Assembly (NCBI GenBank): GCA_020633675.1
Contig: JACKDE010000002.1
Span: forward strand, 624,644-688,643
DNA: 64,000 nt
From: Deferribacteres bacterium
GTDB lineage: Bacteria; Zhuqueibacterota; Zhuqueibacteria; Zhuqueibacterales; Geothermadaptataceae
Direction of reading: 5' to 3'
Shown here: one piece after another, positions 45,364 through 63,479 of the stretch
How positions within the stretch are numbered: position 1 is the first letter of the stretch
Layout of the letters: each line of letters begins with the position of its first letter
Program-made: the position numbers and the translations under genes
The notes under the pieces: generated by a model
Seen by the model: the letters and a program-made list of their open reading frames with translations, nothing else
Database searches by the model: none
Told to the model about the DNA's origin: nothing

Positions 45364-45487
45364 ACCTGCCTGGCTTTGCGCTACAATCCTGTTGACAGAA
45401 TTCACACGATTTTCAGGATAATAACGTGGCATGCTGCTCTTCGAATTTAATCCTGTTCATCCAGCCCAAATCCAATTTTGATCAAAT

Positions 45488-46369
45488 ATGAAAATCGCCA
45501 TTCTCGCTGACATTCATGGCAACATCCACAGCCTCGAAGCCGTGCTCGAAGATATCGAGCGGCAGCACGTCGAACAGGTGGTGGTGAATGGCGATTTGGT
45601 CAATCGCGGACCGAACAGCCTGGCCGTGCTGGAGCGCCTGTGGGGCAATAACTTCATTTTCACCCTCGGCAACCACGACGATCTGGTGCGGATGTGGGTC
45701 GAGCACGATCCGAAAATTCCGGCGGCATGGTACAGCGATCCGTTTTGGGCCGGCACTGCTGATCTCGCCAAGGAGCTTGCAGCAGCCGGTTGGATCGATC
45801 TGCTCCGCAGCTTCAACATGCGCCACGAAATCTGCCTGCCCGGCGCGCCCAGAGTGCTGATCGCGCACGGCAGCCCGCGCCACTATCGTGAAGGGCTGGC
45901 GCTGTACACGCCCGAAAAAATCCTGTACGAACTGGCCACGGAATTCGACGCTGATATTTTCATCGGATCGCACACCCATCGCCCGCTCGATCGCACCTTT
46001 CGCACGCACCGTTTCATCAATACCGGTGCGGTCGGCACACCGTTCAACCGCAATCCGCATGCGCAGTACCTGCTGATGCGCTACCACAAGCAAGACTGGC
46101 ACGCCGAGTTTCGCTCGGTGCCGTACGACCGCGATGCAGCGATTGCCGCTTTTGCGGATACCGGCTACCTTGAGAAGGGACTGCTCAGTGCACACATTTT
46201 CCGCGAAGAACTGATTCACGCCTCGCCGTTGTTCGATCCGTTTTGGCGCTGGACGGGCCACAACCAAAAGCCGCGCGACTGGGCATCGTGGACGGAATTT
46301 CGCGAAATGAATCAGGATCGATTCGCTCGAATCTGCGATAGGGGCGTTACAGTGAGGTCAGAAATGTGA
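45488..46369 (+). CDS. Calcineurin-like metallophosphoesterase
   Basis: ILADIHGN...NGDLVNRGP...GNHD motifs. 293 aa. Confidence 0.8.
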   Translation: MKIAILADIHGNIHSLEAVLEDIERQHVEQVVVNGDLVNRGPNSLAVLERLWGNNFIFTLGNHDDLVRMWVEHDPKIPAAWYSDPFWAGTADLAKELAAAGWIDLLRSFNMRHEICLPGAPRVLIAHGSPRHYREGLALYTPEKILYELATEFDADIFIGSHTHRPLDRTFRTHRFINTGAVGTPFNRNPHAQYLLMRYHKQDWHAEFRSVPYDRDAAIAAFADTGYLEKGLLSAHIFREELIHASPLFDPFWRWTGHNQKPRDWASWTEFREMNQDRFARICDRGVTVRSEM

Positions 46370-46528
46370 GCACCGTGATCATCAGCACGGCGATAAGGAG
46401 CGGTACAAGTTTGAGGTTAAACTCTGTTTCAGTCTGGTGTTTGGTTTCGATGTCTGTCATATATTTGCCTTGAAAAGAACGCGTTTGCATGGCCGATTAC
46501 AACACGGCACGTCGTGAACTGCAACACG

Positions 46529-47008
46529 TTACACTGTTTCATCTTCAGGGGAATCCGCAGCCGCGCCGGGCTTGTCAAAAGCGTCGGCGTATTTCGGATC
46601 CTTAAAGTCTTCCACCCGCATTTCAATCTGACGATTAAAAATCGGATAAAGTTTTTTCATCAACTCGCCGTCTGCATCGAGTTGCGTGACGATGGTCATC
46701 TGCGCAAACTCGACCAGCACAACGGCGGCATCTTCGCCTTTGCCGATTTTGGTTTTTTTCTGCTTCACGTTGAACGGCTTGATGGTGCCGGCTGGCAGCG
46801 TCACCGCCTCGCCGGTTTCCTGATGCACAAAATTGATCGTCACCAGGCCTTTGACCATGCTGGTAAACAGGTGCCCGACCTGCAGGCTGTTGTCGAGCTC
46901 AGCCTCGATTTGAATGTGCAGCAGCGGGATGATATCGCCATCGGGATTCTTGTCTTCCGCCGGCCAATATTTTTTAATGATCGCATTTTCAAAAGTCATC
47001 GCAGGCAC
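46529..47008 (-). CDS. Hypothetical protein
   Basis: 159-aa ORF, acidic C-terminus, no recognised motif. Confidence 0.45.
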   Translation of the reverse strand: MPAMTFENAIIKKYWPAEDKNPDGDIIPLLHIQIEAELDNSLQVGHLFTSMVKGLVTINFVHQETGEAVTLPAGTIKPFNVKQKKTKIGKGEDAAVVLVEFAQMTIVTQLDADGELMKKLYPIFNRQIEMRVEDFKDPKYADAFDKPGAAADSPEDETV

Positions 47009-47283
47009 GTCCTCGCAAAGCGGTGAATATCGTCAAAATAAACGGCCGCAATAATACACAGAAATTTTGCCGTTTGCAAGTGATTCTTTTGTGGGGAGAG
47101 CTTTTGAAAAAGGCAAATACGAAAAAAATTGAGGGTTGTGCTACAAGATAGTGGATAGATTTTTTGTGTATTTTTTAGGGATTTCAAGGTATTTTTGAAA
47201 GTGCTCACTCTCCTGTTGAGTCTGAGCATTTAATCCTTTCAAAATAGTGGCAAATGTTTTAAAACAGGATTTCGATTTCGATC

Positions 47284-47535
47284 CTAAATCGCACCTGCCT
47301 GATACGATTTGCCGAGCGGTTTGAAGGTCGATGTCTCTTGACGTTGTAATTTGGCTTCGATCTCTTCAAATTTTTTGATCAATTCGGGTGTGTACAATCT
47401 TTCGCCACAGTGCTGGCAAATGCCAACTTTTGCCTCCACGAAGGCTGTGTTAACGCCGCCAGAAAGTACTTCGGTTACCTGCTTCTCGACAATCTCTCCG
47501 CCGCAGCTTGGGCATTTTTCAAGAAATTTCGTCAT
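47284..47535 (-). CDS. YgiT-type zinc-ribbon protein
   Basis: CPSCGG ... CQHCGE four-Cys ribbon (MqsA N-domain-like). 83 aa. Confidence 0.55.
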   Translation of the reverse strand: MTKFLEKCPSCGGEIVEKQVTEVLSGGVNTAFVEAKVGICQHCGERLYTPELIKKFEEIEAKLQRQETSTFKPLGKSYQAGAI

Positions 47536-47704
47536 CGGAAACCACCCCTGCTCGCTTCATTTAATGGGCAAGAAACGATGCGCTTGCAGTCACATTTCAC
47601 TTCAACGGCAAGCGTCCCTCCGCAGGCAAGGTCAAAATCGAAAATCAGCTTCGAAAAGTCAAGCAGAATTTTGCTTGCATCAAGCTGCCCACGTCTCGTT
47701 TGCA

Positions 47705-47733
47705 TTGACAATGTGCAGAATATCTGCTATGCT
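47705..47733 (+). promoter_or_regulatory. Sigma-70-like promoter for the S9 peptidase gene
   Basis: TTGACA-17 nt-TATGCT. Confidence 0.4.
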
Positions 47734-47899
47734 GTTTCGTTGGCGAAAATGGTGGACAAGGTATGCGGGTTGAGCACTGCATTTGCAAGAGATTTGGCAT
47801 TTTTCTACGCTCAACACGGACGCTAGAAATTTTCAAGATATCAAGCGATTGGCCAATGAAAAGGCCGCGTATTTTCCAATCCAAATAAGAGAGGGTGTC

Positions 47900-49939
47900 A
47901 TGAAAACCAATACGCAGGCAAAAGTGTTGTGGCTGGTGTTGTTGATGTGGCCGGTGGGCATGCTGGCGCAGGAGCAGGCGGACAAATGGACGCCGGAGTT
48001 CAGCATGAAATTCAAAAATGTCGGCGGCACGGCGATTTCGCCGGATGGCAGCCTGATCGCCTACGTGGTGCGCGAACCACTGATGCAGGGCGAGAAATCC
48101 GAATATCTGAGTCACATCTGGCTGGCCAGCAGCGATGGCCAGCGCAATTTCCAGTTTACTCAGGGCGATAAATCGTGCAGCAATCCGTCGTTCTCCCCGG
48201 ATGGCGAGTGGCTGGCTTTCACTTCCGCGCGCGATGGCAAGAAAAACCAGGTTTGGCTGATGCGGGTCTACGGCGGCGAGGCCGTGCAGCTCACAAAAGC
48301 CAAAAACAGTGTCGGTGGCTATGCCTGGTCGCCGGATGGCAAGACCATCGCCTACACCATGTCTGATCCGGAAACCAAGGATGAAGAGAAGGCCAAAAAA
48401 GAAAAGCGCGACGTGATTTTAGTGGATCAGAATTTCAAGTACAACCATCTCTACACCATTACTGTGGCCAAGAATGACACAGGCGAGCACGATGGCAAGC
48501 GCCTGACCGCCGGCGAGTTTACCATTTCGAGTTTTGACTGGGCGCCGGATGGCAAGACCATCGCTTTCAGCCATGCCCCGGATCCGCGCATCAACACCGC
48601 CTTCAGCACCTCCGACATCGCGACTGTGCCATCGGACAGCGGCGCGGTGACGCAGTTGGTCACCTGGCCCGGCGCGGACAACAGCCCGATTTACTCGCCG
48701 GATGGCAAATGGCTGGCTTTTATCTCAGACGGCGGCAGCCCGCAGGAAATCGGCCTCGGCGATGTCTACCTCATTTCGAGCGCAGGCGGTGAACCCAAAA
48801 AGCTCGCCGACACCCATGACCGCAGCGCCAGCCTGATCGGTTGGGATCAAAAAGGTGCGAATATTTATTACTCGGAATTCTATCGCACGACACGTCCGAT
48901 CTTTGCCCTGCCTGCCAATGGTGGCGCTCCCAAAATGGTCGCCAACGCTGAGGGCCTGTTCGGCTCGCCTGCATTCAGCCAAAATGGTGAGCGCATGGCG
49001 TTCTCGTTCCAAAGCATCGACAAACCGGTGGAAATCTATACATCACCGATCTCGAAAATGCAAATGCAGCAGATCAGCTCGGTCAACAGCGACATCGCCC
49101 TGCCGCCGATGGGCAAAACCGAGGTGCTGACCTGGAAATCACCAGACGGGCTCGAAATCGAAGGCTTGCTGACCTATCCGGTCGGCTACGAAAAGGGCCG
49201 CACATACCCGCTGATTTTGAACGTGCACGGCGGTCCGGCTGGCGTGTACGCGCAAAACTTCACCGGCGGTCCGTCGATTTACATGTTGCAGTATTTTGCT
49301 CAGCAGGGCTATGCGATTTTGCGCGGCAATCCGCGCGGCAGCACCGGCTACGGCAAGGATTTCCGTTTCGCCAATTTCAAAGATTGGGGCTACGGCGATT
49401 TTGAAGATATTATGAGTGGTGTCGACAAGGTGATCGACATGGGCGTGGCGCACCCGGACAGTCTGTGCCTGATGGGTTGGAGCTACGGCGGCTACATGAC
49501 ATCGTTTGCAGTCACCAAAACCGAGCGCTTCAAAGCCGCCAGCATGGGCGCGGGCCTGCCCAATCTCATCAGCATGGTCACCACTACCGACATTCCAAAT
49601 TATTTGGTGGCGCACATGGGCGACGAGTTTTGGAACGATTACGAAACCTACGAAAAGCACTCGGCGATGTATCGCATCAAAAATGTCACCACGCCGACGC
49701 AGGTGATTCACGGAGCCAACGATTTGCGTGTGCCGTTTACGCAGGGGCAGGAGTTCTATGTCGCGCTCAAGCGCATGGGCGTGCCGACCGAGATGGTGGT
49801 CTATCCGCGCACCCCGCACGGCCCACGCGAGCCCAAATTCCTGATGGACGTTTCCGGCCGCATCATGACCTGGTTCGAAAAGCATCTCAATCGCACCAGG
49901 CCCGCCGCCCCCGAAGTGCCGGAGAAGACGATGGAGTGA
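47900..49939 (+). CDS. S9 family serine peptidase (acylaminoacyl-peptidase/DPP-like) with N-terminal beta-propeller
   Basis: Signal peptide. TolB-like propeller repeats (SPDG..LAF). Catalytic GWSYGGYMT, Asp and His (TPHG). The start is moved to MKTNTQ, which has a GAGAGGG RBS. Confidence 0.85.
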   Translation: MKTNTQAKVLWLVLLMWPVGMLAQEQADKWTPEFSMKFKNVGGTAISPDGSLIAYVVREPLMQGEKSEYLSHIWLASSDGQRNFQFTQGDKSCSNPSFSPDGEWLAFTSARDGKKNQVWLMRVYGGEAVQLTKAKNSVGGYAWSPDGKTIAYTMSDPETKDEEKAKKEKRDVILVDQNFKYNHLYTITVAKNDTGEHDGKRLTAGEFTISSFDWAPDGKTIAFSHAPDPRINTAFSTSDIATVPSDSGAVTQLVTWPGADNSPIYSPDGKWLAFISDGGSPQEIGLGDVYLISSAGGEPKKLADTHDRSASLIGWDQKGANIYYSEFYRTTRPIFALPANGGAPKMVANAEGLFGSPAFSQNGERMAFSFQSIDKPVEIYTSPISKMQMQQISSVNSDIALPPMGKTEVLTWKSPDGLEIEGLLTYPVGYEKGRTYPLILNVHGGPAGVYAQNFTGGPSIYMLQYFAQQGYAILRGNPRGSTGYGKDFRFANFKDWGYGDFEDIMSGVDKVIDMGVAHPDSLCLMGWSYGGYMTSFAVTKTERFKAASMGAGLPNLISMVTTTDIPNYLVAHMGDEFWNDYETYEKHSAMYRIKNVTTPTQVIHGANDLRVPFTQGQEFYVALKRMGVPTEMVVYPRTPHGPREPKFLMDVSGRIMTWFEKHLNRTRPAAPEVPEKTME

Positions 49940-51539: not shown

Positions 51540-52922
51540 TTATTTCACACCGTATTTTTTCAGTTTGTAGCGCAGGTGTCGTTCGCTCATACCCAAAAGT
51601 TCCGCTGCTCGCGTCTGCACGCCTGCTGTTTGCTGCAGCGCCTTCCTGATGAGCATTTGTTCGAACGCTTCCACCCGCTCAGTGAATGTCCCTTGCGAAA
51701 AATCGCCAGCCACTTCGGCCTCAGCCCTGGGCTCACGAACATGGATTGGAAAATCATCAACGGTGAGCACTTCTGCGCGCGACAGCACCACTGCCTGTTG
51801 CACAATGTTTTCCAGCTCGCGCACATTGCCGGGGTATCGATATTTAATTAACAAATCGATCGCCTCACGCGAAATGCCGCTGATTTTTTTACCATTTTCT
51901 TCTGCAAAGCGGTTTACAAAACGGTCGATAAGCGGCGGGATGTCTTCACGGCGCTCGCGTAGGGGCGGAATGCGGATCGTGACGACATTGAGCCGATAGT
52001 AGAGATCATCACGGAACGTGCCGTCATTTGTCATCGCTTCCAGGTCGCGATTGGTAGCAGCGACCAGCCGAATGTCAGCGTGGATGGTCTCCGAACCGCC
52101 GATGCGTTCGAAGGTTTTTTCCTGAAGCACCCGCAGCAACTTGACCTGCACGGCAGGCGGAATTTCACCGATTTCATCGATGAAAAGCGTGCCGCCTTCG
52201 GCCAGCTCGAAGCGGCCTTTGCGCTGGCGATCCGCGCCAGTGAATGCGCCCTTTTCATGCCCGAACAGTTCGCTTTCAAGCAAATTTTCCGGCAGTGCTG
52301 CACAATTAACCGCAACGAATGGCTTGTCCTTGCGTGGGCTGGCGAAGTGAATCGCCCGCGCAACCAGCTCCTTGCCGGTGCCGGTATCGCCCATAATCAA
52401 TACGGACGCCTGGCTCGGTGCAACCCGGCCGGCCAAATTGAGTACCTGCTCCATCGCTGATGATTGCGAGATGATACTTTCGAAACGAAAGCGATGTTCG
52501 AGCTGATCGCGCAGCTGCCTGTTTTCCTGAATGAGTTGCCTGCGCTCCGTGGCTTTGCGGATAATGAGCAAAAGTTCCTGCAAGTCGATGGGTTTGGTGA
52601 GATAATCGAACGCACCGAGCTTCATGGCTTCCGTGGCTGATTCTATGCTGCCGAATGCGGTCATCAGCACAACGTCGATTTCCGGGCTGATTTTTTTGAG
52701 CTCACTCAGCAACTCAACACCGGTCATCCCCGGCATTTTGTAATCCGTCAACACAATATCGATGACGTTTTCTTTGGCGAGTTGAATGGCCCTGGCTGGC
52801 TGATTCGCCTGCAATACATGATATTTTTGTTTGATGAGAAAACCAGCCAGACTCTCCAGTTGGGCCGGCTCATCATCAACAACCAAAATGGTGAATTTCA
52901 TGATTTTTCCATGGTTTGTCAC
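51540..52922 (-). CDS. Sigma-54-dependent response regulator (NtrC/AtoC family)
   Basis: ILVVDDEP receiver. [15 protein letters not shown]-terminal HTH. A 4-nt overlap with the upstream histidine kinase. Confidence 0.9.
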
Positions 52923-54967
52923 ACATTCGTAAAGGGTAAAACGATCCTGAAGATGCTACCCTGGCCGATTTCGCTTTCTACTTCGATCACACCGCCATGT
53001 GCCTGGACGATTTGATTGGCAATGCTCAGTCCCATGCCGGTGCCATCATCTTTGGTGGTATAGTATAGATCGAAAATTTTCGACAGCTCATCTTCCGCTA
53101 TGCCGCTGCCGAAATCCTGGATTTCGAGCACGACATATGCGCCCTGCTCATAGCTGGAAAACTCGATCCGGCCGTTCGGGTTGGAGGCATCCGCCGCATT
53201 GCGGATCAGGTTGAGCAGCACCTGGGTCATCTGATCGGTGTCGATGTTGATGTGTGCGTCCGGCGCGGACTTGATCTCGATCTGAATGGATTTGGCTGCT
53301 GCTTCGCTCTGCAAAATCGTGGCGCTTCGTTGCAGGAAATCGTTTAGCTTGATGGCAGTTGCATTTAATTTGGGAGGGCGTGCAAATTTCAAAAAGCGCT
53401 GGATGATTTCGTTTACGCGACGCACTTCGGATACGATGGTCTTGACGAGTTTGCGATATTCGGGCTCGTCCTCTTTTGGATTGAATTCCAGGTCAAGTCT
53501 CTGGCCGAGCACACCGATGGCGTTGAGCGGATTGCGAATTTCGTGTGCCACACCGGATGCGAGTTTGCCCATGGCGCTGAGTTTTTCCCTTCGCTGCACC
53601 ACTTTTTCCAACGCCTTGCGCGCCGTCAAATCGCGCAGGACGATGACCGCACCATTCATCTGGCCATTTTCGTCATACAATAAGCTGCTTTTTGCCGCCA
53701 GATAAAGTTTTTTGCCGGAAACCTCGCAAGGAAATTCATCATCTTGAAATGCAACATCGCGCTTCCGCAGAACGCGCAGCAGAAAATCCGAACATTCGGG
53801 AAGATATTTTGCCGCTGCTTGCCCTTTTAGTGCTGCACTGGGCAAATTGAACAGGCGCACTGCCGCATCGTTGAGCAAGGTGATGCGCCCTGCGGTATCC
53901 ACCGCGATCACGGCATCGGCCATACTTTCGAGGATGGCCCCGGTGAATTTTTGTTCGCGTAGAAATGCCTTGGTCATCGCCGTTTCATTGCGGCGTGCGA
54001 TAAACAAGTTTAAAAAGATGAGCGCACCAATAACCAGCAGCCCGGTCAGGATAAAAAAACGCTGACGAATCCGCGCCAGAACGACATCGAGATGATCTGC
54101 CCACAAGCCGATCCGCAGCAATCCGACTTTGGTATTTTGAAAGGTAAATGACCTGACGGCTTCGAAAACCTGTACTTCGTCAAATGGAATCAGTCGGGTT
54201 GAAACCTGTTCACTATCAAGTGCTGCGACCAGGAAGGGGTCGGTCTGGATGGAATCCAGTTCGGTAATGTTTTCGGTAGCGGAGATGATTGCACTTGTGT
54301 CCTGCCAGACAATGTAGGCGATGCCTGTCGCATCCTTGCCGATATGCTGTATCAGTTGGCCGACACCAATTTTGCGGCGCAAGTCGACCAACTCCTCGGC
54401 AGCAATATTCGCGACAATGGCGCCACCTCGCGAGCGCCTGATCGCTACCGCAAACCGCATCCCTTGTTCGAATCGGCTGCGCTTGAAGCCTACCACCAAA
54501 GAGTCGGCCCCGCCAACAAGAATCGGCTGCAGTTCATCCTGTGGATCGTAAAGCGGCTCGATGCCTTCATGCACTTCGTCGTGGCTGCTCGCAACCTTCA
54601 CGCCATTTTTGTTGAATATGTTGATGCGGTAGAGCTGGTTCTGTTTGGAAATTTCGTTCAGCTCAGGCTGGGTGAGCGGCTGACGCACATCCAGCTGATC
54701 GAGCAGTCGCAGGTTGTTCATCAGTCGTTGCGCCAGCTGATCCTTGATTTCATTGTAGGCAAGAATGGCGTTTTCCGCGCCGAGGGAAAGGGATTCGATG
54801 AGCACGGTTGCTTCTTCATGCATGAGGTGTTCGACTTCCCGTTTCTGCCGGCTCAATTCATAAAATGCCGTTCCAAACAGCACAAGCAACAAAATAACCG
54901 AGAGCACGAGAAGCACTTGGGGTGGCAAAATCAGCATGCGCCATTTGCTGGTTTTGGCTTTTTTCAC
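52919..54967 (-). CDS. Sensor histidine kinase with large periplasmic domain, PAS, HisKA, HATPase_c
   Basis: TM1, about 260-aa periplasmic domain, TM2, PAS (ESMADAVIAVD). H-box SGVAHEIRNPLN. N/G boxes. A 4-nt overlap with the upstream cytochrome gene. Confidence 0.85.
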   Translation of the reverse strand: MKKAKTSKWRMLILPPQVLLVLSVILLLVLFGTAFYELSRQKREVEHLMHEEATVLIESLSLGAENAILAYNEIKDQLAQRLMNNLRLLDQLDVRQPLTQPELNEISKQNQLYRINIFNKNGVKVASSHDEVHEGIEPLYDPQDELQPILVGGADSLVVGFKRSRFEQGMRFAVAIRRSRGGAIVANIAAEELVDLRRKIGVGQLIQHIGKDATGIAYIVWQDTSAIISATENITELDSIQTDPFLVAALDSEQVSTRLIPFDEVQVFEAVRSFTFQNTKVGLLRIGLWADHLDVVLARIRQRFFILTGLLVIGALIFLNLFIARRNETAMTKAFLREQKFTGAILESMADAVIAVDTAGRITLLNDAAVRLFNLPSAALKGQAAAKYLPECSDFLLRVLRKRDVAFQDDEFPCEVSGKKLYLAAKSSLLYDENGQMNGAVIVLRDLTARKALEKVVQRREKLSAMGKLASGVAHEIRNPLNAIGVLGQRLDLEFNPKEDEPEYRKLVKTIVSEVRRVNEIIQRFLKFARPPKLNATAIKLNDFLQRSATILQSEAAAKSIQIEIKSAPDAHINIDTDQMTQVLLNLIRNAADASNPNGRIEFSSYEQGAYVVLEIQDFGSGIAEDELSKIFDLYYTTKDDGTGMGLSIANQIVQAHGGVIEVESEIGQGSIFRIVLPFTNV

Positions 54968-56598
54968 AGCGTCCCCGCCATGTGTGCGATCACTTCAGGC
55001 GCCTTCGACGCACCGTGGAAGTATTTCGAAAAACGAGCCACCGCCGGCGTATCGTGCATCAAAAGATCATCGACAAATGCCGGCTTGGCTGTTTGGTAGA
55101 GCAACTCGACCATAAATTTTAAATTTTTTGTGGTGGCAGGCACGGCAATTTGATACGTCACCAAATCTCTGCCGGTGCCTTCGTTTTTATCGTCGCGGTT
55201 AAAATTGGCATCGCCTGCTGCTGCGCCATGAATCGCAACGTCGGCAATGCGCTTGGCCGTACTGACAAATCCACGCGGCGGCAAACGGTTATCCTTTTTA
55301 TACTTTGCGGCGCGCAAGAGCGTAAAGGTAAGCTCATCGTTGACGTCGGTCATCACAGTCTCGTAGATTTGTGCCTGATTCTCGCTCGAAATAAAGTCGT
55401 AATGAGGCTCGAAAATGGAAGTTAGATTTTGAATGCGACCATTTTGATCGAATGCACCGGATTCAAAAATTTTTTCTCCGTTGTCATTTTGCACCAAAAC
55501 GTGCAGCCAGGCGCGGCGGCCCGGAAAGCCGGTCGGGAATTTGTGGCCGGTGCGATTTGCGATTTCCACTTCCAGAAGGAGTTGTCCGCCCTTGCGCGAA
55601 GGCTGAACATTGAGCGATGCGGTTTTTTCTCGCAGCTGCATGCGGGTCTGAGCAATGGTCTTGTCGAACTGGGCGGCTGTGGCAGTTGCGCCGATCTCGG
55701 CTGCATTGTCTCGAATAATTTGCAGCATGAAGGCATTGCCCCCCACGAATTGGTGCCGCCAAAAAGGCGATTGCGTGCCAATCCATGGCGGCATACTGGA
55801 AATTTTCACGGCCTCATCGATGCGCGGCATGTGGCAATCCTGACAATGAATTTCTTTTTGTGAAAAAATGCTGTTTTGCCATTCCAGATACGGCGTTTGT
55901 TCCGGAAACATACCTGCGATTTCACCCTCATCGTCGACGAAAGGTGTGAAAAGCGTGTGGCAGGTAGCGCAGAGCTCGGATTTATGGATGTGCTCGCCAT
56001 ATTGTGGTGTATAGCCGGTGTGATGCATCATTGGCATCGGCACAACATCCTGGTACGGGCCAAAAATCTGCCGGGTATCTTCGATTTGATACTTACCGGA
56101 AAAACTGGCATCGGTACCCAGGTTTTCCGGTTGAATTTGATGGCACGCCGTGCAGCTCACGCCATCCATCGCCAATGCGTTCGTGCGCATGGCTTCAATC
56201 GAGTAGCCGGAAGCGCCATCGTGGACAGCCTGAGTGCGGCCCATTGGCGCGTGGCAGGTGGTGCACTTGTCCTCTATCAGAGCCTTCAGCGCAGGGTTTT
56301 CCATGACTTCGCTTTCAACCTTGGCCTGCCATAAAGGATCCCTGGCGGAGTTGCCCATCATGGTTGCGCGCCAATCGGTTGAAATCGAGAGATCAATGCC
56401 CTTGCTGTCTGTTAATGCAACGCCATTTGAAGTATGACAAAATGCACAATTACCGGAGCCACTGAACAGCATCGATGTTTCAGTGGGGAGTGCTTCCGTT
56501 TGCGAGAATGCCATTGCTGGCACTATCGTCATGATGAGAGATAGACAGGTCGCAAGATAGAATTTTTGATTTGGTTTCATGAGCCAGTTTCCATCCAT
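54964..56598 (-). CDS. Periplasmic pentaheme c-type cytochrome
   Basis: Signal peptide. Five CxxCH motifs (CAFCH, CTTCH, CTACH, CATCH, CQDCH) in 544 aa. The start may be the second Met (MKPNQ, 56580). Confidence 0.8.
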   Translation of the reverse strand: MDGNWLMKPNQKFYLATCLSLIMTIVPAMAFSQTEALPTETSMLFSGSGNCAFCHTSNGVALTDSKGIDLSISTDWRATMMGNSARDPLWQAKVESEVMENPALKALIEDKCTTCHAPMGRTQAVHDGASGYSIEAMRTNALAMDGVSCTACHQIQPENLGTDASFSGKYQIEDTRQIFGPYQDVVPMPMMHHTGYTPQYGEHIHKSELCATCHTLFTPFVDDEGEIAGMFPEQTPYLEWQNSIFSQKEIHCQDCHMPRIDEAVKISSMPPWIGTQSPFWRHQFVGGNAFMLQIIRDNAAEIGATATAAQFDKTIAQTRMQLREKTASLNVQPSRKGGQLLLEVEIANRTGHKFPTGFPGRRAWLHVLVQNDNGEKIFESGAFDQNGRIQNLTSIFEPHYDFISSENQAQIYETVMTDVNDELTFTLLRAAKYKKDNRLPPRGFVSTAKRIADVAIHGAAAGDANFNRDDKNEGTGRDLVTYQIAVPATTKNLKFMVELLYQTAKPAFVDDLLMHDTPAVARFSKYFHGASKAPEVIAHMAGTL

Positions 56599-56605
56599 CG
56601 TTCAA

Positions 56606-57784
56606 TCAAAAGCTCACTTCCACGCCCAGCGTACCGACACCGGCAGAGAAATCGTAATAGAGATCATTTGACTTGTTTTGAATAAAAAGATACTCGAGAT
56701 AGAGTTTTAAATCTTTGCTAAACTGGCTGAGGCGAAAAGTCTTTTCAAGACTGCCCCAGGCTTGTTGACGGGTATCGACGCGGAGAACATCGCCAACCAG
56801 TGACTCGCCTTCAAGATCGAGCGCCAGGCGCTGGTAGTCTTTGCTGTAATGATCGTAGCCAAGTCGCAACATGATGCCTCGTGGTAGCAGCGTTGACAGC
56901 ATAGCGCCAGTCTCTATGCTCTCGTAGCCATACCGATCATCGTACAGTTCGTCTTCGGTAAAATAGCCGGTTTCCAGACCGGAGAGGAAACGTCCGTCGC
57001 CACCAAAATTGCTGCGATTGCGCAGGTAGCCGCTCAGTCCGATCTTTTCGAACAGCGATTGCGAAACGCGAACCGAATTGACCCATTGTTTTGCGCTTGG
57101 ATTGTCAATTTCAGTGTAGACAAAATAGCTGCCATTGCCTCGCAACCGGCCACCCCGGCTGCTATCATCGACCGGCGCTCTCTCTTCCGCAACAACCTGC
57201 GAAACATAATTTTTATAACCCAATTCGCTCGAGAAAATGAAGGTTGTTCGCGAAGGTAATGAAAAATTCAGCCGCGTAAAAACGATATGTTCCCAATTGC
57301 TGAGTTCCTGCAGATTGGTATAACTGCGGTTTCGTACCTGATAGCCGGCATAGAGAATACCAAGTCCGGAAACTGGCAGCTTCAGGTTTGAATAGGCTGC
57401 AAATTCTGAAAAATCATAAATCTCATAATCTGCACCATCGAGGCGAAAAGACATGAGAGCACCAAGACTTAAAAGCCCACTGCCGGAGCCCAGGCTGCGC
57501 TGGCTTGCCAGGCCAATTTGATGAAAGGAGAAGGTGCGCGAACTATTATCCGCAAAATGGTTTAAATAGCCGTCATAATAAAACTGGCCCGACCATTTGG
57601 ATGCCAGCCAGGCTTTGGATAGATCCAGATTCGCTTGCGAAATGACATCTGCGGTCTGGGCGTAATTTCGATAGGCATTTCCATCGAGACTGGTTGTGAG
57701 TGAAATTGTTGACTGCAACTGAGCTGATCCTATGGTTGGTAAAAGCATCCAGAACAAGGCCAGGACGCGTCGTTTGCTTCTCAT
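56606..57784 (-). CDS. Outer-membrane beta-barrel protein (porin-like)
   Basis: Signal peptide. Alternating amphipathic beta pattern. C-terminal ...GVEVSF ending in Phe. AGGAG RBS. Stop is 8 nt before the cytochrome start. Confidence 0.55.
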   Translation of the reverse strand: MRSKRRVLALFWMLLPTIGSAQLQSTISLTTSLDGNAYRNYAQTADVISQANLDLSKAWLASKWSGQFYYDGYLNHFADNSSRTFSFHQIGLASQRSLGSGSGLLSLGALMSFRLDGADYEIYDFSEFAAYSNLKLPVSGLGILYAGYQVRNRSYTNLQELSNWEHIVFTRLNFSLPSRTTFIFSSELGYKNYVSQVVAEERAPVDDSSRGGRLRGNGSYFVYTEIDNPSAKQWVNSVRVSQSLFEKIGLSGYLRNRSNFGGDGRFLSGLETGYFTEDELYDDRYGYESIETGAMLSTLLPRGIMLRLGYDHYSKDYQRLALDLEGESLVGDVLRVDTRQQAWGSLEKTFRLSQFSKDLKLYLEYLFIQNKSNDLYYDFSAGVGTLGVEVSF

Positions 57785-57965
57785 TGTATCATCTCCTTCT
57801 ATTGCAAATTGTTTTTTTGCGAAATGTTTATTTGAACTTATTCAATATGTATGCCAATATTTTTGTTTTGTTTTAAAGTATTGAATTTAATGAAATTGTA
57901 GTGAAAGCAAATTTTGCTGGATCATTATTGGCTCGACCAAATGGTCGGCTTTTCGACCTGTTCGT

Positions 57966-58000
57966 CGCAAAAAAAAGTGGGAGCCTTTTCAGACTCCCAC
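57966..58000 (-). terminator. Rho-independent terminator after the TSP3-repeat gene
   Basis: gtgggag-cctttt-cag-actcccac stem preceded on the plus strand by a8, which is a T8 run on the minus strand. Confidence 0.55.
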
Positions 58001-58039: not shown

Positions 58040-58819
58040 TTAACGATTGCGTCCACCTTGTTTGGCGCCTTTTGGTCCGCTGCCGTCGCAGGTGCCTGTG
58101 CCAGTGCCGGCTCCAGCGTTGCCGTTGCGCATGCCTTTGCCAGCAGCAGCCTTGCGACCAGTACCATCCTGAGGCCGGACGTAGTCGGCATCGCGTCCGT
58201 TCGGGATGCCATCGCCATCGTCGTCCCGTGCCAGATCGTTGATGCCGTCGCCATCTTCATCCACGAAGCCCATTTTGCCTTTGCCCTTGAGTGGATTTTG
58301 TTTCACATAATCTTCATCCTGACCATTCGGGATGCCATCGCCATCTGCGTCAGCGGCATTGTCATTGATACCGTCGCCATTCGCATCAACAAAGCCGCGC
58401 GTACCCTTGCCTTTATTGGCCTTGTTGCCGCCTTTTTGTGCGCGACCATTGGCATTCTTCTGGCCACTGCCATCTTGCGGTGGAACCCAGTCCGGGTCCT
58501 GGCCGTTGGGAATGCCATCGCCGTCTGCGTCCTGAGCATAATCATTGACACCGTCACCATCTGCATCAACAAAGCCTTTTCCTTTGCCGGCATTCGGATT
58601 CAATTTGAGGTAGTCGGGATCCTGCCCATTGGGAATGCCGTCGCCATCATGATCCTGGGCGTTGTCGTTGATGCCGTCTTTATTTGTATCGACAAAGCCT
58701 TTGTCGGCTGGTTTGCCCTTATTTTGTTGCTGTGCGTAGGAATCCGTCGGGAGAGCGAAAAACAGACCGATTGCCATCAGTAAAGTGGCTGTTGCGAAAA
58801 AAGATGCTATGCGTTTCAT
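58040..58819 (-). CDS. Secreted calcium-binding protein with thrombospondin-type-3-like repeats
   Basis: Signal peptide. At least 4 copies of GFVD.[ND].DG[IV]ND.A.D.DGDGIPNGQD.D[YW]. AGGAG RBS. Confidence 0.7.
   Translation of the reverse strand: MKRIASFFATATLLMAIGLFFALPTDSYAQQQNKGKPADKGFVDTNKDGINDNAQDHDGDGIPNGQDPDYLKLNPNAGKGKGFVDADGDGVNDYAQDADGDGIPNGQDPDWVPPQDGSGQKNANGRAQKGGNKANKGKGTRGFVDANGDGINDNAADADGDGIPNGQDEDYVKQNPLKGKGKMGFVDEDGDGINDLARDDDGDGIPNGRDADYVRPQDGTGRKAAAGKGMRNGNAGAGTGTGTCDGSGPKGAKQGGRNR
58175..58710. repeat. Intragenic tandem repeat (about 120 nt period) encoding the TSP3-like units
   Basis: Visible DNA-level repetition (ggaatgccatcgccatc..., gttgataccgtcgccat...). Confidence 0.5.
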
Positions 58820-59256
58820 GATAAATCTCCTTTGATTTTTGAGAAATGAGTTTGAAACATGCTTGCTTTATTTGCCAATTTCTTGACTTGTCTCAGTTTC
58901 GCGGCTGGATTAATCAACTTGCGTGCCAAAATTATCCGGATAGCATTTTATCGGATTTATACCCTTTTAAAACAAAAGGTTAAGATGTTCAATTTGATGT
59001 GATTGTTTTTCAGAGCTTGGAGAATCAATTCGACGTGACAGTCGAAGAATCGACGAATTGGTCGGAGAACCGTATTTGCAGACGGACGCAAGAAGCACAT
59101 AGGATGGTCTGGGTACCAAAGGATAATTTCGGATTCGGGAGAAAGTGTGACAAATCCGGCAAGGCGGTTTCATCTTCGGCTGAAATGTGTTGCTCACGAG
59201 CCTCAGATTCAACATTTTGCGATAAAAATTGAGTGGAATAGAATCGAGGAGAGGAA

Positions 59257-61701
59257 ATGCCGATGAAACGACTGGTGCATGTCTTGATGACTTGGGGAGT
59301 GCTGTTAGCCGCTGTTGTGTTAATGCAGAGTTGTACCGAATCATCAACCAACCAAACGCTTGCCGACATCGATACCGTCAACGAATTATGGTATGCGCAG
59401 CCGGCGGACAAATGGGAAAGTGCCCTGCCTGTCGGCAATGGCCGTTTGGGGGCGATGGTGTTTGGTCGCACCGACGTCGAAAAGATCCAATTTAATGAAG
59501 ATACCCATTGGTCGGGCGGCCCCTATAGCACAACCGTAAAGGGTGGCTATGCCTATTTGCCGGAAATCCAGAAACTGCTTTTTGAAGGTAATTATTATCA
59601 GGCGCACCGCTTGTTCGGCCGCAAGCTCATGGGCTACCCCGTCGAGCAGCAAAAATACCAGTCCACCGGCGATTTGCTGCTAAAATTCGCTTCGCAGAGC
59701 GAAGTGAACGACTACAGCCACCGCCTGGATTTGACACGAGCCATCTCGACCGTAAGCTACAAACAAGATGGTGTGCAATTCACTCGTGAGGTTTTTTCCA
59801 CCGCTGTCGACCAGGTGATTGTGGTCCGTTTGACGGCTGACCAGCCCGGAAAAATCTCCTTCGTCGCCAACCTCAACGGCTATCGAAACACCGCGCATTC
59901 CAATTATGGCACAGATTATTATTACAAAGATGGCTACGGTCAGGATGGACTGATTTTGAACGGCAAGTCTGATGACTACCTCAGCATTGAAGGCAAACTG
60001 CGCTATCAGGCCCGCGTCAAAGCCGTGCCTGAGGGCGGCTCCATGAGAGTGGATGACGTCAATTTGATCGTCGAAAACGCCAATGCCGCCACGCTTTTTA
60101 TTGCAGCCGCGACCAATTTTGTCAACTACAAAGACGTCTCCGGCAATCCGCAACAACGCATCGATGACGTTCTCGATGCGATCCAGGGCAAAAACTATGA
60201 GGCGATCAGGGAAGCCCACATCCGCGACCACCAGGCTTATTATAACCGCGTCAGCCTCGATTTTGGCAATGGCCCCAATTCCACCCTGCCGACCGACAAG
60301 CGCATCAAAGAATTTGATGGCAAAAACGATCCGAATCTGGCAGCGCTGGCTTTTCAATTTGGTCGCTATCTGCTGATCGGCTCATCACGGCCGGGCACGC
60401 AGCCGGCAAATTTGCAGGGCATTTGGAACGATAAAATGAATCCCAATTGGGACTCCAAATACACCACCAATATCAATACCGAGATGAATTACTGGCCATC
60501 GGAAGTCGCCAATTTGAGTGAACTGAACGCGCCGCTTTTCAAGATGATCGAAGAATTGACCGATCAGGGTACCGATGTGGCGCGTGAGCATTACGGCAAA
60601 AGCGGTTGGGTTTTTCATCAAAATACCGACTTGTGGCGTGTGGCTGCGCCGATGGATGGCGTGCAATGGGGCACCTTTACGACTGGCGGCGCCTGGCTGA
60701 CGACCCATTTATGGGAGCATTATCTTTTTAACGGCGACCGCGACTTTCTCACGGATGTCTACCCGATTATGCGTGGTAGCGCCGCCTTTTTTCTCGATTT
60801 TCTGGTCGAGCACCCTCGCTACGGTTGGTTGGTGACCGCACCGAGCACCTCGCCTGAGAATTTCCCCGGCCGCCCTGGTAATGACAGCTTTGAAGACGAA
60901 GTGCCGGATTACTACACCCCCGGCATCACCATTTGTGTCGGCTCGACCATAGACATGCAGCTGTTAAATGACCTGTTTAGCTATGTAGCCGAGGCATCGG
61001 AGATCCTGGGTGTCGATGCAGATTTTCGTGAGCGCGTGCTCGCTGCGCGCGCACGACTGGCGCCGATGCAAATCGGCAAAAATGGCGACCTGCAGGAGTG
61101 GCTGGAAGATTGGGATCAGAAAGAAAAGAGCCATCGCCATATTTCAAATTTGTATGGACTTTACCCGGGCAACCAGATTTCCGCGAATCATACACCTGAC
61201 TTCGCCGATGGAGCACGCGTGGTGTTGAACCAGCGCGGTCTGGTTGGCAACGGTTGGGCGTCCGCATGGAAAATGGCGTGCTGGGCGCGATTGTACGAAC
61301 CGGAGAAGGCCATGGAGAATTTTCGCTACTACGCCAATCATTATGCCACCAACAGCCTGTTCGCAATATGCTCCGGCGCGCTGCAAGTTGATGGTTCGTT
61401 TGGCGTGACGGCTGCGGTGGCGGAAATGCTTCTGCAGTCCCATGAGGGCGAATTGAATATTCTGTCAGCATTGCCTAAAAGCTGGCAGAATGGCGAAATT
61501 ATTGGCTTGCGCGCCCGCGGCGGATTCGAAGTGGATATGCAGTGGCAAAATGGCAATTTAACCTCGCTATCTGTTCTGTCGATCGGCGGCAATACGCTCA
61601 ATTTGCGCTACCGTGACATCGAGGCGGAGCTGCAAACAGAAGCAGGCGAGCGCTATGCTTTTAACGGAAAACTTCTAAAAGTTGAAAAAGCACAAAAATA
61701 A
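59257..61701 (+). CDS. Glycoside hydrolase family 95 (alpha-L-fucosidase-like)
   Basis: N-terminal WYAQPADKWESALPVGNGRLGAMVFG is the GH95 N-domain signature. (alpha/alpha)6 catalytic region. 814 aa. Lipoprotein-like signal. Confidence 0.75.
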   Translation: MPMKRLVHVLMTWGVLLAAVVLMQSCTESSTNQTLADIDTVNELWYAQPADKWESALPVGNGRLGAMVFGRTDVEKIQFNEDTHWSGGPYSTTVKGGYAYLPEIQKLLFEGNYYQAHRLFGRKLMGYPVEQQKYQSTGDLLLKFASQSEVNDYSHRLDLTRAISTVSYKQDGVQFTREVFSTAVDQVIVVRLTADQPGKISFVANLNGYRNTAHSNYGTDYYYKDGYGQDGLILNGKSDDYLSIEGKLRYQARVKAVPEGGSMRVDDVNLIVENANAATLFIAAATNFVNYKDVSGNPQQRIDDVLDAIQGKNYEAIREAHIRDHQAYYNRVSLDFGNGPNSTLPTDKRIKEFDGKNDPNLAALAFQFGRYLLIGSSRPGTQPANLQGIWNDKMNPNWDSKYTTNINTEMNYWPSEVANLSELNAPLFKMIEELTDQGTDVAREHYGKSGWVFHQNTDLWRVAAPMDGVQWGTFTTGGAWLTTHLWEHYLFNGDRDFLTDVYPIMRGSAAFFLDFLVEHPRYGWLVTAPSTSPENFPGRPGNDSFEDEVPDYYTPGITICVGSTIDMQLLNDLFSYVAEASEILGVDADFRERVLAARARLAPMQIGKNGDLQEWLEDWDQKEKSHRHISNLYGLYPGNQISANHTPDFADGARVVLNQRGLVGNGWASAWKMACWARLYEPEKAMENFRYYANHYATNSLFAICSGALQVDGSFGVTAAVAEMLLQSHEGELNILSALPKSWQNGEIIGLRARGGFEVDMQWQNGNLTSLSVLSIGGNTLNLRYRDIEAELQTEAGERYAFNGKLLKVEKAQK

Positions 61702-61871
61702 CACAGGTAAAGCATATATTGGTGAGATTTTTCGCAACAAAAACAGCAGTGTACCTGTCCTAAACTGCGTGCTCAATCTCACATTAACTAAATTTGTGCC
61801 AACGAATCGTCACCATGCTCTAAAAGCTATATGTTACCTTTCAAAATGATGACTTATTTACAGGAGATCTC

Positions 61872-63479
61872 ATGAAGAACAAACGCCTGAACATGCTTGC
61901 TGCAATGATGATGTTGTTGTTTGTCAGCAGTGCAGCGCTCGCGCAGTACGGCAGCGTCGAGAAGATCACGGCTGCCAATCTGAAAAACCACCTGACTTTT
62001 ATTGCGGCAGATGCGATGGAAGGCCGCGACACCGGCTCGCGCGGATTGAAAACCGCGGCGAATTACATCGCTGCGCATCTCGAACGCTGGGGTGTTAAAC
62101 CTGCCGGCGATGAAGGCAGCTACTTTCAGAAAATTACGCTGCTGAAACACACAGTCGATCTTGATCAAACCAGCGTGAAAATCAATGATCAGACTTTCAC
62201 GTTTGGTGATGACTACCTGGCACAGCCTGCTACTGCTTCAGCGAGCGGCAAAATGGTCTATGTTAGTCATGGTTGGGTCATTAAAGACAAAAACATCAAC
62301 CCGTACGAAGGGATTGATGTCAAGGGCAAAATCATGGTGGTCAGTGAATCGCTGCCGCCGGGCATGTCTTTTCGCGATTTGCGCGGCGCAGGCGAGATTG
62401 TGCGTCCGGATCAGTACGGTCGCGAGCATGGTGCACTCGGCGCGATCATTATCCCGGGCGGGCGTTCGCTGGGACGCTGGGAACGCAATCGCGAGCGCGC
62501 AACAGAGACAGGCGTGATCGAAGTCGAAAAATTCAAATCGGAAGAAGAAGCGGAAGAACTGCCGATCATTACTGCGGCAGAAAACCTGGTGAAGGTTCTT
62601 TTCGAAGACGAAAAACACAATGCTGAAGCCGTTTTGGCGGCTGCGAACGGCGGCGATGAAGTGCCGGCTTTTGAACTGGGTGCGGAAAAAACCGCCAGCC
62701 TGAATATTGTCTCCAGCACCGAAAATGGCTATACGCAAAATGTCGTCGGCATTGTCGAGGGCAAGGACAGCAAATTAAAGAACGAGTACGTTGCAATCGG
62801 CGCACACTATGATCACGTCGGTATTGGCAGAGCGATAGACGGCGACGATCTCTACAATGGGGCAGATGATGACGGCTCCGGCACCGTGTCTGTACTCAAT
62901 ATTGCCGAGGCGTTTGCTACCGGCGCGAAACCAAAACGTTCGATTCTGTTCGTTTGGCACACTGGCGAAGAGAAGGGTTTATGGGGCTCGCGCTACTTCA
63001 ACGAATTTCCGACCGTGCCGCACGAACAGATCGTCGCGCAACTCAACATCGATATGGTTGGCCGCAGCCGCGCGGAAGGCGACACCAATCCTGCCAACGA
63101 CGAACTCGCCGGTCCGAATGAAGTGTACGTCATCGGTTCGAAAATGATGAGCACTGAGCTGGGCGAGCTGAGTGAGAAAGTCAACAATAGCTATCTCAAA
63201 CTCGATTTCAACTATAAATATGATGATCCTAATGATCCGCAGCGTTTTTTCTATCGCAGCGATCATTTCAACTATGCACGCCATGGCATTCCGATCATTT
63301 TTTATTTCACGGGCGTTCATGAAGATTATCATCGCCCATCTGATACGATCGATAAAATCGATTTTGTCAAAATGGAGAAGATTGCCCGCACCATCTATGC
63401 TACTGGTTGGGAGCTGGCAAATCGCAACAAACGCCCCGAAGTGGACAAGCCTTTGCCGGAACAGTTGTCGGGCAGATAA
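61872..63479 (+). CDS. M28-family zinc aminopeptidase with PA domain, secreted
   Basis: Signal peptide. HYDHVG ... DDGSG ... EE ... H metal-ligand pattern of M28. Confidence 0.85.
   Translation: MKNKRLNMLAAMMMLLFVSSAALAQYGSVEKITAANLKNHLTFIAADAMEGRDTGSRGLKTAANYIAAHLERWGVKPAGDEGSYFQKITLLKHTVDLDQTSVKINDQTFTFGDDYLAQPATASASGKMVYVSHGWVIKDKNINPYEGIDVKGKIMVVSESLPPGMSFRDLRGAGEIVRPDQYGREHGALGAIIIPGGRSLGRWERNRERATETGVIEVEKFKSEEEAEELPIITAAENLVKVLFEDEKHNAEAVLAAANGGDEVPAFELGAEKTASLNIVSSTENGYTQNVVGIVEGKDSKLKNEYVAIGAHYDHVGIGRAIDGDDLYNGADDDGSGTVSVLNIAEAFATGAKPKRSILFVWHTGEEKGLWGSRYFNEFPTVPHEQIVAQLNIDMVGRSRAEGDTNPANDELAGPNEVYVIGSKMMSTELGELSEKVNNSYLKLDFNYKYDDPNDPQRFFYRSDHFNYARHGIPIIFYFTGVHEDYHRPSDTIDKIDFVKMEKIARTIYATGWELANRNKRPEVDKPLPEQLSGR

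Follow-up and report, generated by a model that had tools for sequence, protein, structure and literature searches.

What role does a multihaem cytochrome play when its gene lies between those for an outer-membrane protein and a two-component system: does it inform the sensor kinase, or is it produced under the control of the signalling pair? This question is raised by a four-gene block (positions 51540-57784) in a 64,000-nt stretch of contig JACKDE010000002.1 from a Deferribacteres bacterium (assembly GCA_020633675.1), hereafter the window, to whose coordinates all positions refer unless a locus number precedes them. The block encodes an outer-membrane beta-barrel, a pentahaem c-type cytochrome, a sensor histidine kinase and an NtrC-family sigma-54-dependent response regulator. 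A preliminary description of this DNA had proposed a redox-sensing relay in which the cytochrome serves as sensing input. The comparative analysis presented here favours, with a probability of about 0.62, a different reading: the locus would be a lineage-specific version of a conserved, positively autoregulated sigma-54 two-component regulon, present in KSB1, Calditrichota and Chlorobiaceae, of which the cytochrome is most likely a regulated output. The core of this regulon comprises the Cache-type kinase, the regulator, an acidic repeat protein and the barrel, to which a variable cargo position is added.

Organization of the four-gene block

All four genes lie on the minus strand. The first encodes the outer-membrane beta-barrel (56606-57784; 392 aa, about 18 strands, from a family without a name) and is followed by the gene for the pentahaem cytochrome (54964-56598; 544 aa, or 538 aa from the second ATG). 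Next come the sensor histidine kinase (52919-54967; 682 aa), in which a transmembrane segment, a periplasmic Cache-like domain of about 270 aa and a second transmembrane segment precede the PAS, HisKA and HATPase domains, and the regulator (51540-52922; 460 aa), which consists of REC, AAA+ (with GAFTGA motif) and HTH_8 domains. In the coordinates of the open reading frames (ORFs), a 7-nt gap separates the barrel and cytochrome genes, and both other junctions are 4-nt overlaps. The start of the cytochrome is ambiguous, since the ORF begins at ATG 56598 and an identical database protein of 538 aa begins at the second ATG, 56580, which would enlarge the gap to the barrel gene from 7 nt to 25 nt. 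With start codons placed as in database homologues (ATG 56580 for the cytochrome, Met8 for the regulator), gaps of 25 nt and 17 nt result, which are still tight.

The base composition of the block is unremarkable. A simple terminator scan, which allowed loops of 3-8 nt, revealed no signal above chance inside the block, and no convincing terminator was seen there; the same scan missed the terminator of the upstream gene rep259, probably on account of its 10-nt loop. The four genes probably form one operon, and a single transcript beginning upstream of 57784 is plausible, because no internal terminator stands out and rep259 ends in a clear terminator. The preliminary description had thus identified the four genes and their strand correctly, and its tight, operon-like organization was borne out by the 7-nt gap and the two 4-nt overlaps. 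Of the junctions given there (8, 4 and 4 nt), only the first needs correction, to 7 nt, and the periplasmic kinase domain, set at 260 aa, is present and measures about 270 aa between its two flanking hydrophobic segments. What had been overlooked were the sigma-54 promoter, the enhancer-like sites and the upstream gene at 58040-58819, the most constant partner of the barrel.

Predicted sigma-54 promoters and tandem palindromes

Two predicted promoters of sigma-54 type were found at the locus, each preceded by a pair of palindromes. The first, the -24/-12 promoter TGGCACgcaagTTGA (58914-58928, minus strand), would serve the repeat-protein gene rep259; 5' of this gene, two tandem palindromes of the form CGAC-N6-GTCG (59031-59044 and 59051-59064, 20 bp apart) are putative upstream activating sequences for an NtrC-type regulator. 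The second, TGGCATacataTTGA (57842-57856, minus strand), is located 57 nt 5' of the barrel start codon and is accompanied by another tandem pair of the same palindrome (57934-57947 and 57954-57967, also 20 bp apart), the putative upstream activating sequences of the barrel operon. The sigma-54 promoter motif has only these two matches in the window (0.47 expected), both on the minus strand and both correctly placed and oriented. Indeed, out of six exact palindrome matches in the window (0.70 expected), four make up the two tandem pairs upstream of the two sigma-54 motifs; no match was found with N7 spacing, which indicates that N6 is the correct one. Two lone palindromes (25086-25099 and 27556-27569), distant from the sigma-54 motifs and apparently within coding regions, are probably due to chance.

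Both sets of elements are conserved. Upstream of rep259, TGGCAC and TTG are unchanged in all six regions aligned (alignment A2), and the palindromes keep their position in every orthologous locus. Upstream of the barrel gene, TGGCA and TTGA are invariant (alignment A1, comprising loci L008, L010 and L011), and at least one copy of the palindrome is kept in each of these three loci. Promoter and palindrome elements are invariant in both alignments, and the flanking DNA diverges. Across 31 non-redundant loci, 35 promoter-plus-palindrome units were identified, with the palindrome consensus CGACcAnntGGTCG situated 91-137 nt upstream of the promoter. The palindromes are tandem in 24 of the 35 units, with 20-bp phasing, and TGGCA(C/T)-N5-TTG is invariant in all 35, the -12 element of the window being TTGA and not TTGC. 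By sequence, promoter and palindromes show the textbook layout of an NtrC-type enhancer with its sigma-54 promoter and, as this layout recurs at both promoters, the regulator would activate the repeat-protein gene as well as its own operon. This and all other regulatory assignments made in this study are comparative.

The gene rep259 (58040-58819, minus strand) encodes a secreted acidic protein of 259 aa with four repeats, each containing two DxDxDG motifs that resemble calcium loops. Its eight D-x-[DN]-x-D-G motifs are arranged in the repeat unit GFVDxDGDGINDxAxDxDGDGIPNGQDxDY, and Asp accounts for 15% of the residues. No Pfam match was obtained, and the likeness to dockerin calcium loops is weak and non-significant. 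An intrinsic terminator read from the sequence, a hairpin followed by T8 (57969-58000, minus strand), separates rep259 from the barrel operon, and L008, L010 and L011 retain both its hairpin and its T-run (alignment A1). Homologues of rep259 lie directly 5' of the barrel gene in these same three loci and 3' of the regulator gene in Chlorobiaceae. As the most constant neighbour of the barrel, with its own predicted sigma-54 promoter and tandem palindromes, rep259 is regarded as a regulon member, the fifth alongside the four-gene operon.

Conserved gene order and a variable cargo position

When species-representative genomes were scanned for the sensor domain, 29 loci were obtained, one from KSB1, one from Calditrichota and 27 from Chlorobiaceae; several are clipped by contig ends, and counts of cytochrome presence are therefore lower bounds. 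In metagenomes of the Joint Genome Institute (JGI), one further locus (L042) was found with the KSB1-type sensor, and none with the barrel alignment. Word-indexed protein searches had returned only 7 barrel and 4 sensor-domain homologues, understating both, and were replaced by an exhaustive profile search and the genome scan. Orthologous kinase and regulator genes adjoin a repeat protein and a barrel in KSB1, in Calditrichota, in the 27 Chlorobiaceae loci and on the JGI contig.

The stretch between barrel and kinase genes varies among the closest relatives. In L011 the order is repeat protein, barrel, kinase and regulator, leaving the slot empty. In L010/L013 two repeat proteins and the barrel are followed by genes for an ABC protein, an FtsX protein, a LolA-like protein and a 434-aa protein, and then by kinase and regulator; the same order is found in the Calditrichota genome CLD2, split across two contig ends (L008 and L014). 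Thus, one relative has nothing in the slot and two have a MacB-type ABC transporter set there, a pentahaem cytochrome occupying it only in the genome studied here, behaviour that suggests a cargo position. The adjacency of pentahaem cytochrome and kinase genes is accordingly not conserved in the closest relatives and is lineage-specific, because in these relatives the slot holds either nothing or the ABC transporter set. In CLD2, a gene for an 814-aa protein with a SpoIIE/PP2C domain (L008 10350-12794) is inserted right after the barrel gene and before the ABC genes, a further instance of variable cargo.

Other observations were made at these loci. Downstream (3') of the orthologous regulator in another KSB1 genome (L013 13919-18099) lie genes for an octahaem cytochrome (PF11783) and for a 907-aa protein in which seven CxxCH motifs are fused to a cytochrome b561/DUF4405 membrane domain. 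These octahaem and heptahaem-cytochrome-b genes were considered as regulon members and not counted, since no palindrome lies upstream of them and the promoter-like motif is degenerate. In a more distant orthologous locus (L012 10001-16529), the kinase is split into ORFs of 438 and 249 aa, which may reflect a frameshift or an assembly error, and a sigma-54-like motif at 14466, which no exact palindrome accompanies, precedes the gene for a 431-aa protein 28% identical to the barrel.

In the window, the surroundings of the regulon (41440-49939 and 59257-63479) contain housekeeping and degradative genes without relation to it, so that it appears isolated in the region. The flanking genes encode a TPR protein, an M24 aminopeptidase P, a metallophosphoesterase and an S9 peptidase with a beta-propeller, in addition to an auxin-efflux-carrier-type transporter, a GH95 glycosidase and an M28 peptidase.

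The regulon in Chlorobiaceae

Carriers among the Chlorobiaceae include Pelodictyon luteolum, C. chlorochromatii and two photoferrotrophs, Chlorobium ferrooxidans DSM 13031 (L028) and Chlorobium sp. KB01 (L033). Two layouts with cytochromes were distinguished. In type A, kinase and regulator genes are followed by palindromes and promoter and then by genes for small repeat proteins, the barrel, a monohaem cytochrome c, a dihaem cytochrome and a DUF4405 membrane protein. In type B, represented by seven loci (L019, L021, L024, L029, L034, L039 and L040), palindromes and sigma-54 promoter precede genes for a monohaem cytochrome c, a DUF4405 protein, the kinase and the regulator. A monohaem cytochrome was found in or beside the regulated unit in at least 16 of the 27 loci, and in several others repeat protein and barrel occur with no cytochrome. 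The Chlorobiaceae regulon cytochrome matches PF13442. In L021 (8396-9950) and L033 (7352-8867), and also in L019, L024, L029, L034, L039 and L040, it is a monohaem class-I cytochrome c with a tail rich in Gly, Met and Arg, and the DUF4405 protein has a helical C-terminal domain. Judging from these comparisons, cytochromes are frequent members of the regulon, yet they are optional and non-homologous between lineages (pentahaem, monohaem class I and dihaem).

Kinase and regulator

The hydrophobic segments of the kinase (residues ~11-33 and ~304-324) bracket the periplasmic domain of about 270 aa, after which PAS, HisKA and HATPase domains follow. Profile searches with this periplasmic domain gave a match of Cache/PDC type: sCache_3_2 was detected in 15 of 15 orthologues (best E-value 6.1e-10) and dCache_3 in 12 of 15, although the window copy alone matched sCache_3_2 only at an E-value of 0.017. 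The sensor is accordingly assigned, by profile, to the Cache/PDC-type small-ligand domains (DcuS/CitA-like class), and no haem motif is present in it. Over their full length, kinase orthologues are 59-66% identical in the KSB1/Calditrichota set and 44-49% in Chlorobiaceae, and regulators are 75-82% identical.

The regulator is a canonical NtrC-family enhancer-binding protein, with Sigma54_activat (PF00158, 1.5e-75), Response_reg (PF00072, 6e-30) and HTH_8 (PF02954, 9e-15) domains and the GAFTGA motif at residue 225. Neither protein reaches the equivalog cut-offs of NCBIfam. The regulator scored 536.6 bits against 714 for AtoC, 453.3 against 558.6 for NtrC and 443.6 against 760 for ZraR, and the kinase scored 316.6 against 646 for AtoS and 218.6 against 479 for ZraS.

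The pentahaem cytochrome

The cytochrome has exactly five CxxCH motifs, which account for 10 of its 11 cysteines, the remaining one lying in the signal peptide. A Sec-type signal peptide precedes a five-haem helical domain and an immunoglobulin (Ig)-like beta-sandwich domain, and there is no C-terminal domain for type IX secretion. The AlphaFold model, built without haems, is confident (mean predicted local distance difference test score, pLDDT, 95.2). More than 7,500 homologues were found, and the five motifs are present in 119 of the best 120, but the family has no dedicated Pfam or NCBIfam model. Among these best 120 homologues, 88 are at least 600 aa long, and the listed Pfam matches of most include FlgD-Ig and/or a type IX secretion sorting domain; the extension is absent in 30, as it is in the window cytochrome. 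Since this copy has evidently lost the sorting domain, it should stay periplasmic.

Outside the haem motifs, H282, H352, K353, H399 and M190 are invariant among the homologues, together with the loop N-x-x-G-H-K-x-P-x-x-x-P-x-R, which points either to haems ligated partly by His/His and partly by His/Met or to an active site kept throughout the family. No invariant cysteine outside the CxxCH motifs was found across 115 homologues. A loop of the Ig-like domain, NRTGHKFPTGFPGRR, was linked by profile searches to the pentahaem cytochrome 5ZE8 and, weakly, to MccSep/ExtKL.

The preliminary description had likened this protein to NrfA, and the possibility that it is an NrfA-type ammonia-forming nitrite reductase with its NrfH partner encoded elsewhere was considered. 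Five haems, a similar length and local matches at the fifth haem motif (PF02335, E-value 1.2e-4 over 27 residues; NF008339, E-value 0.005) speak for it. However, all five motifs are CxxCH and there is no C-x-x-C-K, the motif of the lysine-ligated catalytic haem; PF02335 reached 21.6 bits over those 27 residues against a cut-off of 24.1, and NF008339 15.5 bits against 595; and the fold is not that of NrfA. On motif, profile and fold, this identity is virtually ruled out. Otr and cytochrome c554 identities were rejected on the same three grounds. MccSep membership was rejected as well, as the catalytic Cys and the selenocysteine are absent. The cytochrome does not qualify as an MtrC/OmcA protein either, since PF22113 reached 37.3 bits (cut-off 30) but over residues 47-156 only, and MtrC (6QYC) was recovered by Foldseek with an E-value of 0.018 and a TM score of 0.17. 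Sequence and model together indicate that the protein is neither NrfA nor MccSep nor MtrC-like and that it shares the MccSep fold without its catalytic apparatus, because the position of the selenocysteine is occupied by Phe358 and no spare cysteine is available.

The family appears to be mostly stand-alone. Loci of the cytochrome family (L001-L007) have no shared neighbours except a rep259 homologue in L001/L002, and L003-L007 share none with the window. The closest full-length homologue (L001 6898-9938, also in L002) is 65% identical and carries FlgD-Ig and type IX secretion sorting domains. Its gene is located about 120 nt 3' of a rep259 homologue, from which it is separated only by the conserved terminator hairpin; this homologue is preceded by tandem palindromes and a sigma-54 promoter like those of the window.

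The outer-membrane barrel

The barrel belongs to an unnamed family of 715 representative clusters. A model of moderate confidence (pLDDT 73), built from a seven-sequence alignment, has about 18 strands; a barrel wide enough to sheathe a cytochrome would be expected to have 20-26. The window barrel has no cysteine at all, and CxxCH is found in none of 149 representatives of the family. A Cyc2 fused cytochrome-porin was rejected, as the barrel has no N-terminal CxxCH. A tie to the cyc2/c5 iron-oxidation genes of Chlorobia was also rejected, since the barrel lacks a haem motif and a two-component system finds no mention in the cyc2 paper.

Is the cytochrome an output or an input of the signalling pair?

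In the proposed regulon, the periplasmic Cache-type domain of the kinase, assigned by profile, would detect an extracytoplasmic ligand or ion, and the kinase would phosphorylate the NtrC-type regulator, as expected from its family. The regulator would then bind tandem CGACCA-N2-TGGTCG palindromes, delineated by conservation, 90-140 bp upstream of two sigma-54 promoters, the first driving the secreted acidic DxDxDG-repeat protein and the second the barrel, cytochrome, kinase and regulator genes. The cytochrome would thereby be made on demand together with the barrel and a cation-binding protein, and in green sulfur bacteria unrelated cytochromes and DUF4405 or cytochrome-b membrane proteins were recruited to the same regulon. 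In terms of direction, the comparisons make the cytochrome more likely an output (regulator to cytochrome) than an input (cytochrome to kinase), because the sensor domain is conserved with or without a cytochrome and whichever cytochrome family is present, and because the type A cytochrome genes lie distally in the target operon. The idea that a cytochrome is genetically wired to the signalling pair is supported by the c-type cytochromes, of unrelated families, that belong to this regulon in at least 16 of the 27 Chlorobiaceae loci, including seven of type B. Of the redox-sensing relay proposed in the preliminary description, this link is retained; an obligatory role of the cytochrome as sensing input is less likely, given that the Cache domain is conserved while the cytochromes change family or are absent.

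Several points weigh against this reading. The -12 element of the window is TTGA, whereas the canonical one is TTGC, and the palindromes are attributed to this regulator from co-localisation and conservation. The pentahaem cytochrome occupies the slot in one genome only, so that the order may not be under selection. The barrel model is only moderately confident, with a pLDDT of 73 from seven aligned sequences. Finally, the position of a cytochrome gene directly ahead of the kinase gene, in the window and in seven Chlorobiaceae loci, also fits an accessory co-sensor. As a co-sensor, the cytochrome would be oxidised or reduced by an electron acceptor or donor in the periplasm or outside the cell, and the periplasmic domain of the kinase would read this state and convert it into sigma-54-dependent transcription. 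Accessory sensor proteins are often encoded beside their kinase, as are TorT/TorS and LuxP/LuxQ, and here the cytochrome gene is immediately 5' of the kinase gene and overlaps it; in the seven Chlorobiaceae loci a cytochrome c and a DUF4405 protein are encoded directly 5' of the orthologous kinase in an autoregulated operon. Nevertheless, the kinases of L011, L014 and L042 (59-67% identity, same sensor domain) have no adjacent cytochrome, the cytochromes differ by lineage (pentahaem, monohaem class I, dihaem) and the sensor domain is conserved, type A loci encode their cytochromes beyond the barrel, in the distal part of the target operon, and the sensor has a Cache/PDC small-ligand fold devoid of haem motifs. 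A co-sensor role is thus considered unlikely.

Barrel and cytochrome might instead carry electrons across the outer membrane together, as a porin-cytochrome conduit of the kind of MtrAB, Pcc or ExtHIJKL, with the two-component system acting only as its regulator. In favour of this are the adjacency of their genes and two weak profile matches of the cytochrome, PF22113 (the MtrC/MtrF pentahaem domain, 37.3 bits) and NF040886 (ExtKL, E-value 1.4e-6). Most of its close relatives bear a type IX secretion tail, which probably directs them to the cell surface, and in Chlorobiaceae small cytochromes and a DUF4405 membrane protein are encoded after the barrel. A conduit is nonetheless unlikely, since barrels with no multihaem partner are common, as in L008, L011, L042, L015, L016, L018 and L032, and the constant partner of the barrel is the acidic repeat protein. 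Moreover, the modelled barrel has about 18 strands, fewer than the 26 of MtrB; the cytochrome, with its two domains and Ig-like stem, is compact and not an elongated MtrA-like wire; no outer-membrane lipoprotein cytochrome adjoins the locus in the window; and MtrC is not a significant fold match. The cytochrome gene could also be a neutral passenger, a tail-less pentahaem gene that landed between barrel and kinase genes by rearrangement and is co-transcribed with no functional tie, as might be expected from an order seen in one lineage only and a family otherwise scattered without conserved neighbours. Such an origin is likewise considered unlikely in view of the tight, translation-coupled junctions, of the closest full-length homologue (L001), which also adjoins a regulon member, the rep259 homologue, and of the repeated recruitment of cytochromes to the same regulon in another phylum. 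A cytochrome produced as regulated output of a sigma-54 two-component regulon thus remains the preferred reading.

A tentative link to redox-active cations

As to the purpose of the regulon, a weakly supported guess is that it handles a redox-active extracellular cation, most likely a metal. The acidic protein would bind the cation, the barrel would pass it across the outer membrane, and the cytochromes would move electrons to or from it. This idea stems from the joint presence of acidic proteins that bind cations, a channel in the outer membrane, cytochromes and DUF4405/cytochrome-b proteins, and from the precedent of CorSR. It is a conjecture, against which it must be said that no metal-resistance genes adjoin the locus in the window and that the repeat motifs are of calcium type. 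A bolder version, in which kinase and regulator would be the master switch of an inducible envelope electron-transfer module spanning KSB1, Calditrichota and Chlorobiota and the cytochromes would also report the redox state of an extracellular metal, for example Fe(II)/Fe(III), to the kinase, is regarded as quite unlikely. Such a module would comprise the acidic cation-binding protein, the outer-membrane barrel, interchangeable c-type cytochromes and DUF4405/cytochrome-b membrane proteins. If true, the regulon could help green sulfur bacteria to sense or handle iron, given the photoferrotrophs among its carriers.

The regulon is conserved across three mostly uncultured phyla, and its presence in culturable green sulfur bacteria makes it directly testable. 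A cargo slot filled by unrelated cytochromes or by a transporter offers a testable handle on the purpose of envelope cytochromes. Attention is also drawn to a very large pentahaem family (more than 7,500 homologues) of no known function, most of whose closest members carry a type IX tail. Full-text literature searches retrieved no description of the regulon or of the pentahaem family in KSB1, and no account of this system was retrieved among papers on DUF4405 with sigma-54 or on KSB1 with type IX secretion and multihaem cytochromes.

Comparison with known systems

By overall fold, the window cytochrome resembles the low-potential pentahaem c552 of Thermochromatium tepidum (PDB 5ZE8), both domains of which superpose globally with it. 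However, the two proteins are only 15-23% identical, the window protein is about 110 residues longer, and no link of c552 to a two-component system is known. MccSep/ExtKL of Geobacter sulfurreducens is a multihaem selenoprotein polysulfide reductase (bioRxiv 10.1101/2025.11.18.688581; PDB 9WT8), whose activity depends on the haem-ligating Cys239 (distal to haem 2) and on Sec325 in a D-G-U-P loop (bioRxiv 10.1101/2025.11.18.688581). The likeness comprises the five CxxCH motifs, the five-haem cap with an Ig-like stem, and a loop that aligns to MccSep residues 306-348, the MccSep loop NHAGHSIPDGUP being homologous to NRTGHKFPTGFP of the window cytochrome. In contrast, the position of the selenocysteine (U325) is taken by Phe358 (PTGFP), Cys239 has no counterpart, and NF040886 scored only 27.2 bits on the window cytochrome against a cut-off of 250. 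In Geobacter, the ExtKL gene clusters with that of a porin-like protein, ExtI (PMC5877670). An outer-membrane barrel gene beside a periplasmic multihaem cytochrome gene is also the feature shared with MtrCAB, PioAB/MtoAB, Geobacter Pcc and Cyc2. The window locus differs from these conduits and from Cyc2 in its barrel of about 18 strands without haem motif, in barrel orthologues that have no multihaem partners, in having no lipoprotein cytochrome, and in a cytochrome that is not MtrA- or MtrC-like in fold.

In regulatory terms, a parallel is found in CorSR/curA of Myxococcus xanthus, a copper-responsive sigma-54 two-component system with several sigma-54 promoters that controls a copper-tolerance envelope cluster, which includes a secreted PF13442-type cytochrome c (PMC3707914). 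Common to both is the sigma-54 two-component control of an envelope cluster containing a cytochrome c, and PF13442 is also the family of the Chlorobiaceae regulon cytochrome. Unlike the CorSR cluster, the window locus has no adjoining P-type ATPase, multicopper oxidase or other copper genes, and its cytochrome is pentahaem.

The ZraPSR system, which responds to envelope and zinc stress in Escherichia coli and Salmonella, pairs a sensor kinase with a sigma-54 activator of the NtrC family; the pair autoregulates the operon that encodes it and also drives, from another sigma-54 promoter bearing palindromes for the regulator, the gene of a secreted periplasmic metal-binding accessory protein. At the level of arrangement, to which the comparison is confined, the window locus would share the autoregulated kinase/activator pair and the second, here predicted, sigma-54 promoter for a secreted protein. 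ZraS is the second-best NCBIfam match of the kinase (218.6 bits) and ZraR the third-best of the regulator (443.6 bits), but both fall far short of the equivalog cut-offs (479 and 760). In the window locus, a Cache-type domain of about 270 aa forms the sensor, the secreted protein is a DxDxDG-repeat protein unrelated to ZraP, the genes are co-directional and not divergent, and an outer-membrane barrel and cytochromes also belong to the regulon. Although two-component systems acting through sigma-54 are well known, no description of this one was found; its parts are the Cache-type kinase, the defined 14-bp palindrome, the secreted DxDxDG-repeat protein and the unnamed barrel family. The regulon is an undescribed example of the sigma-54 two-component envelope regulons of ZraPSR/CorSR type rather than a categorically new mechanism.

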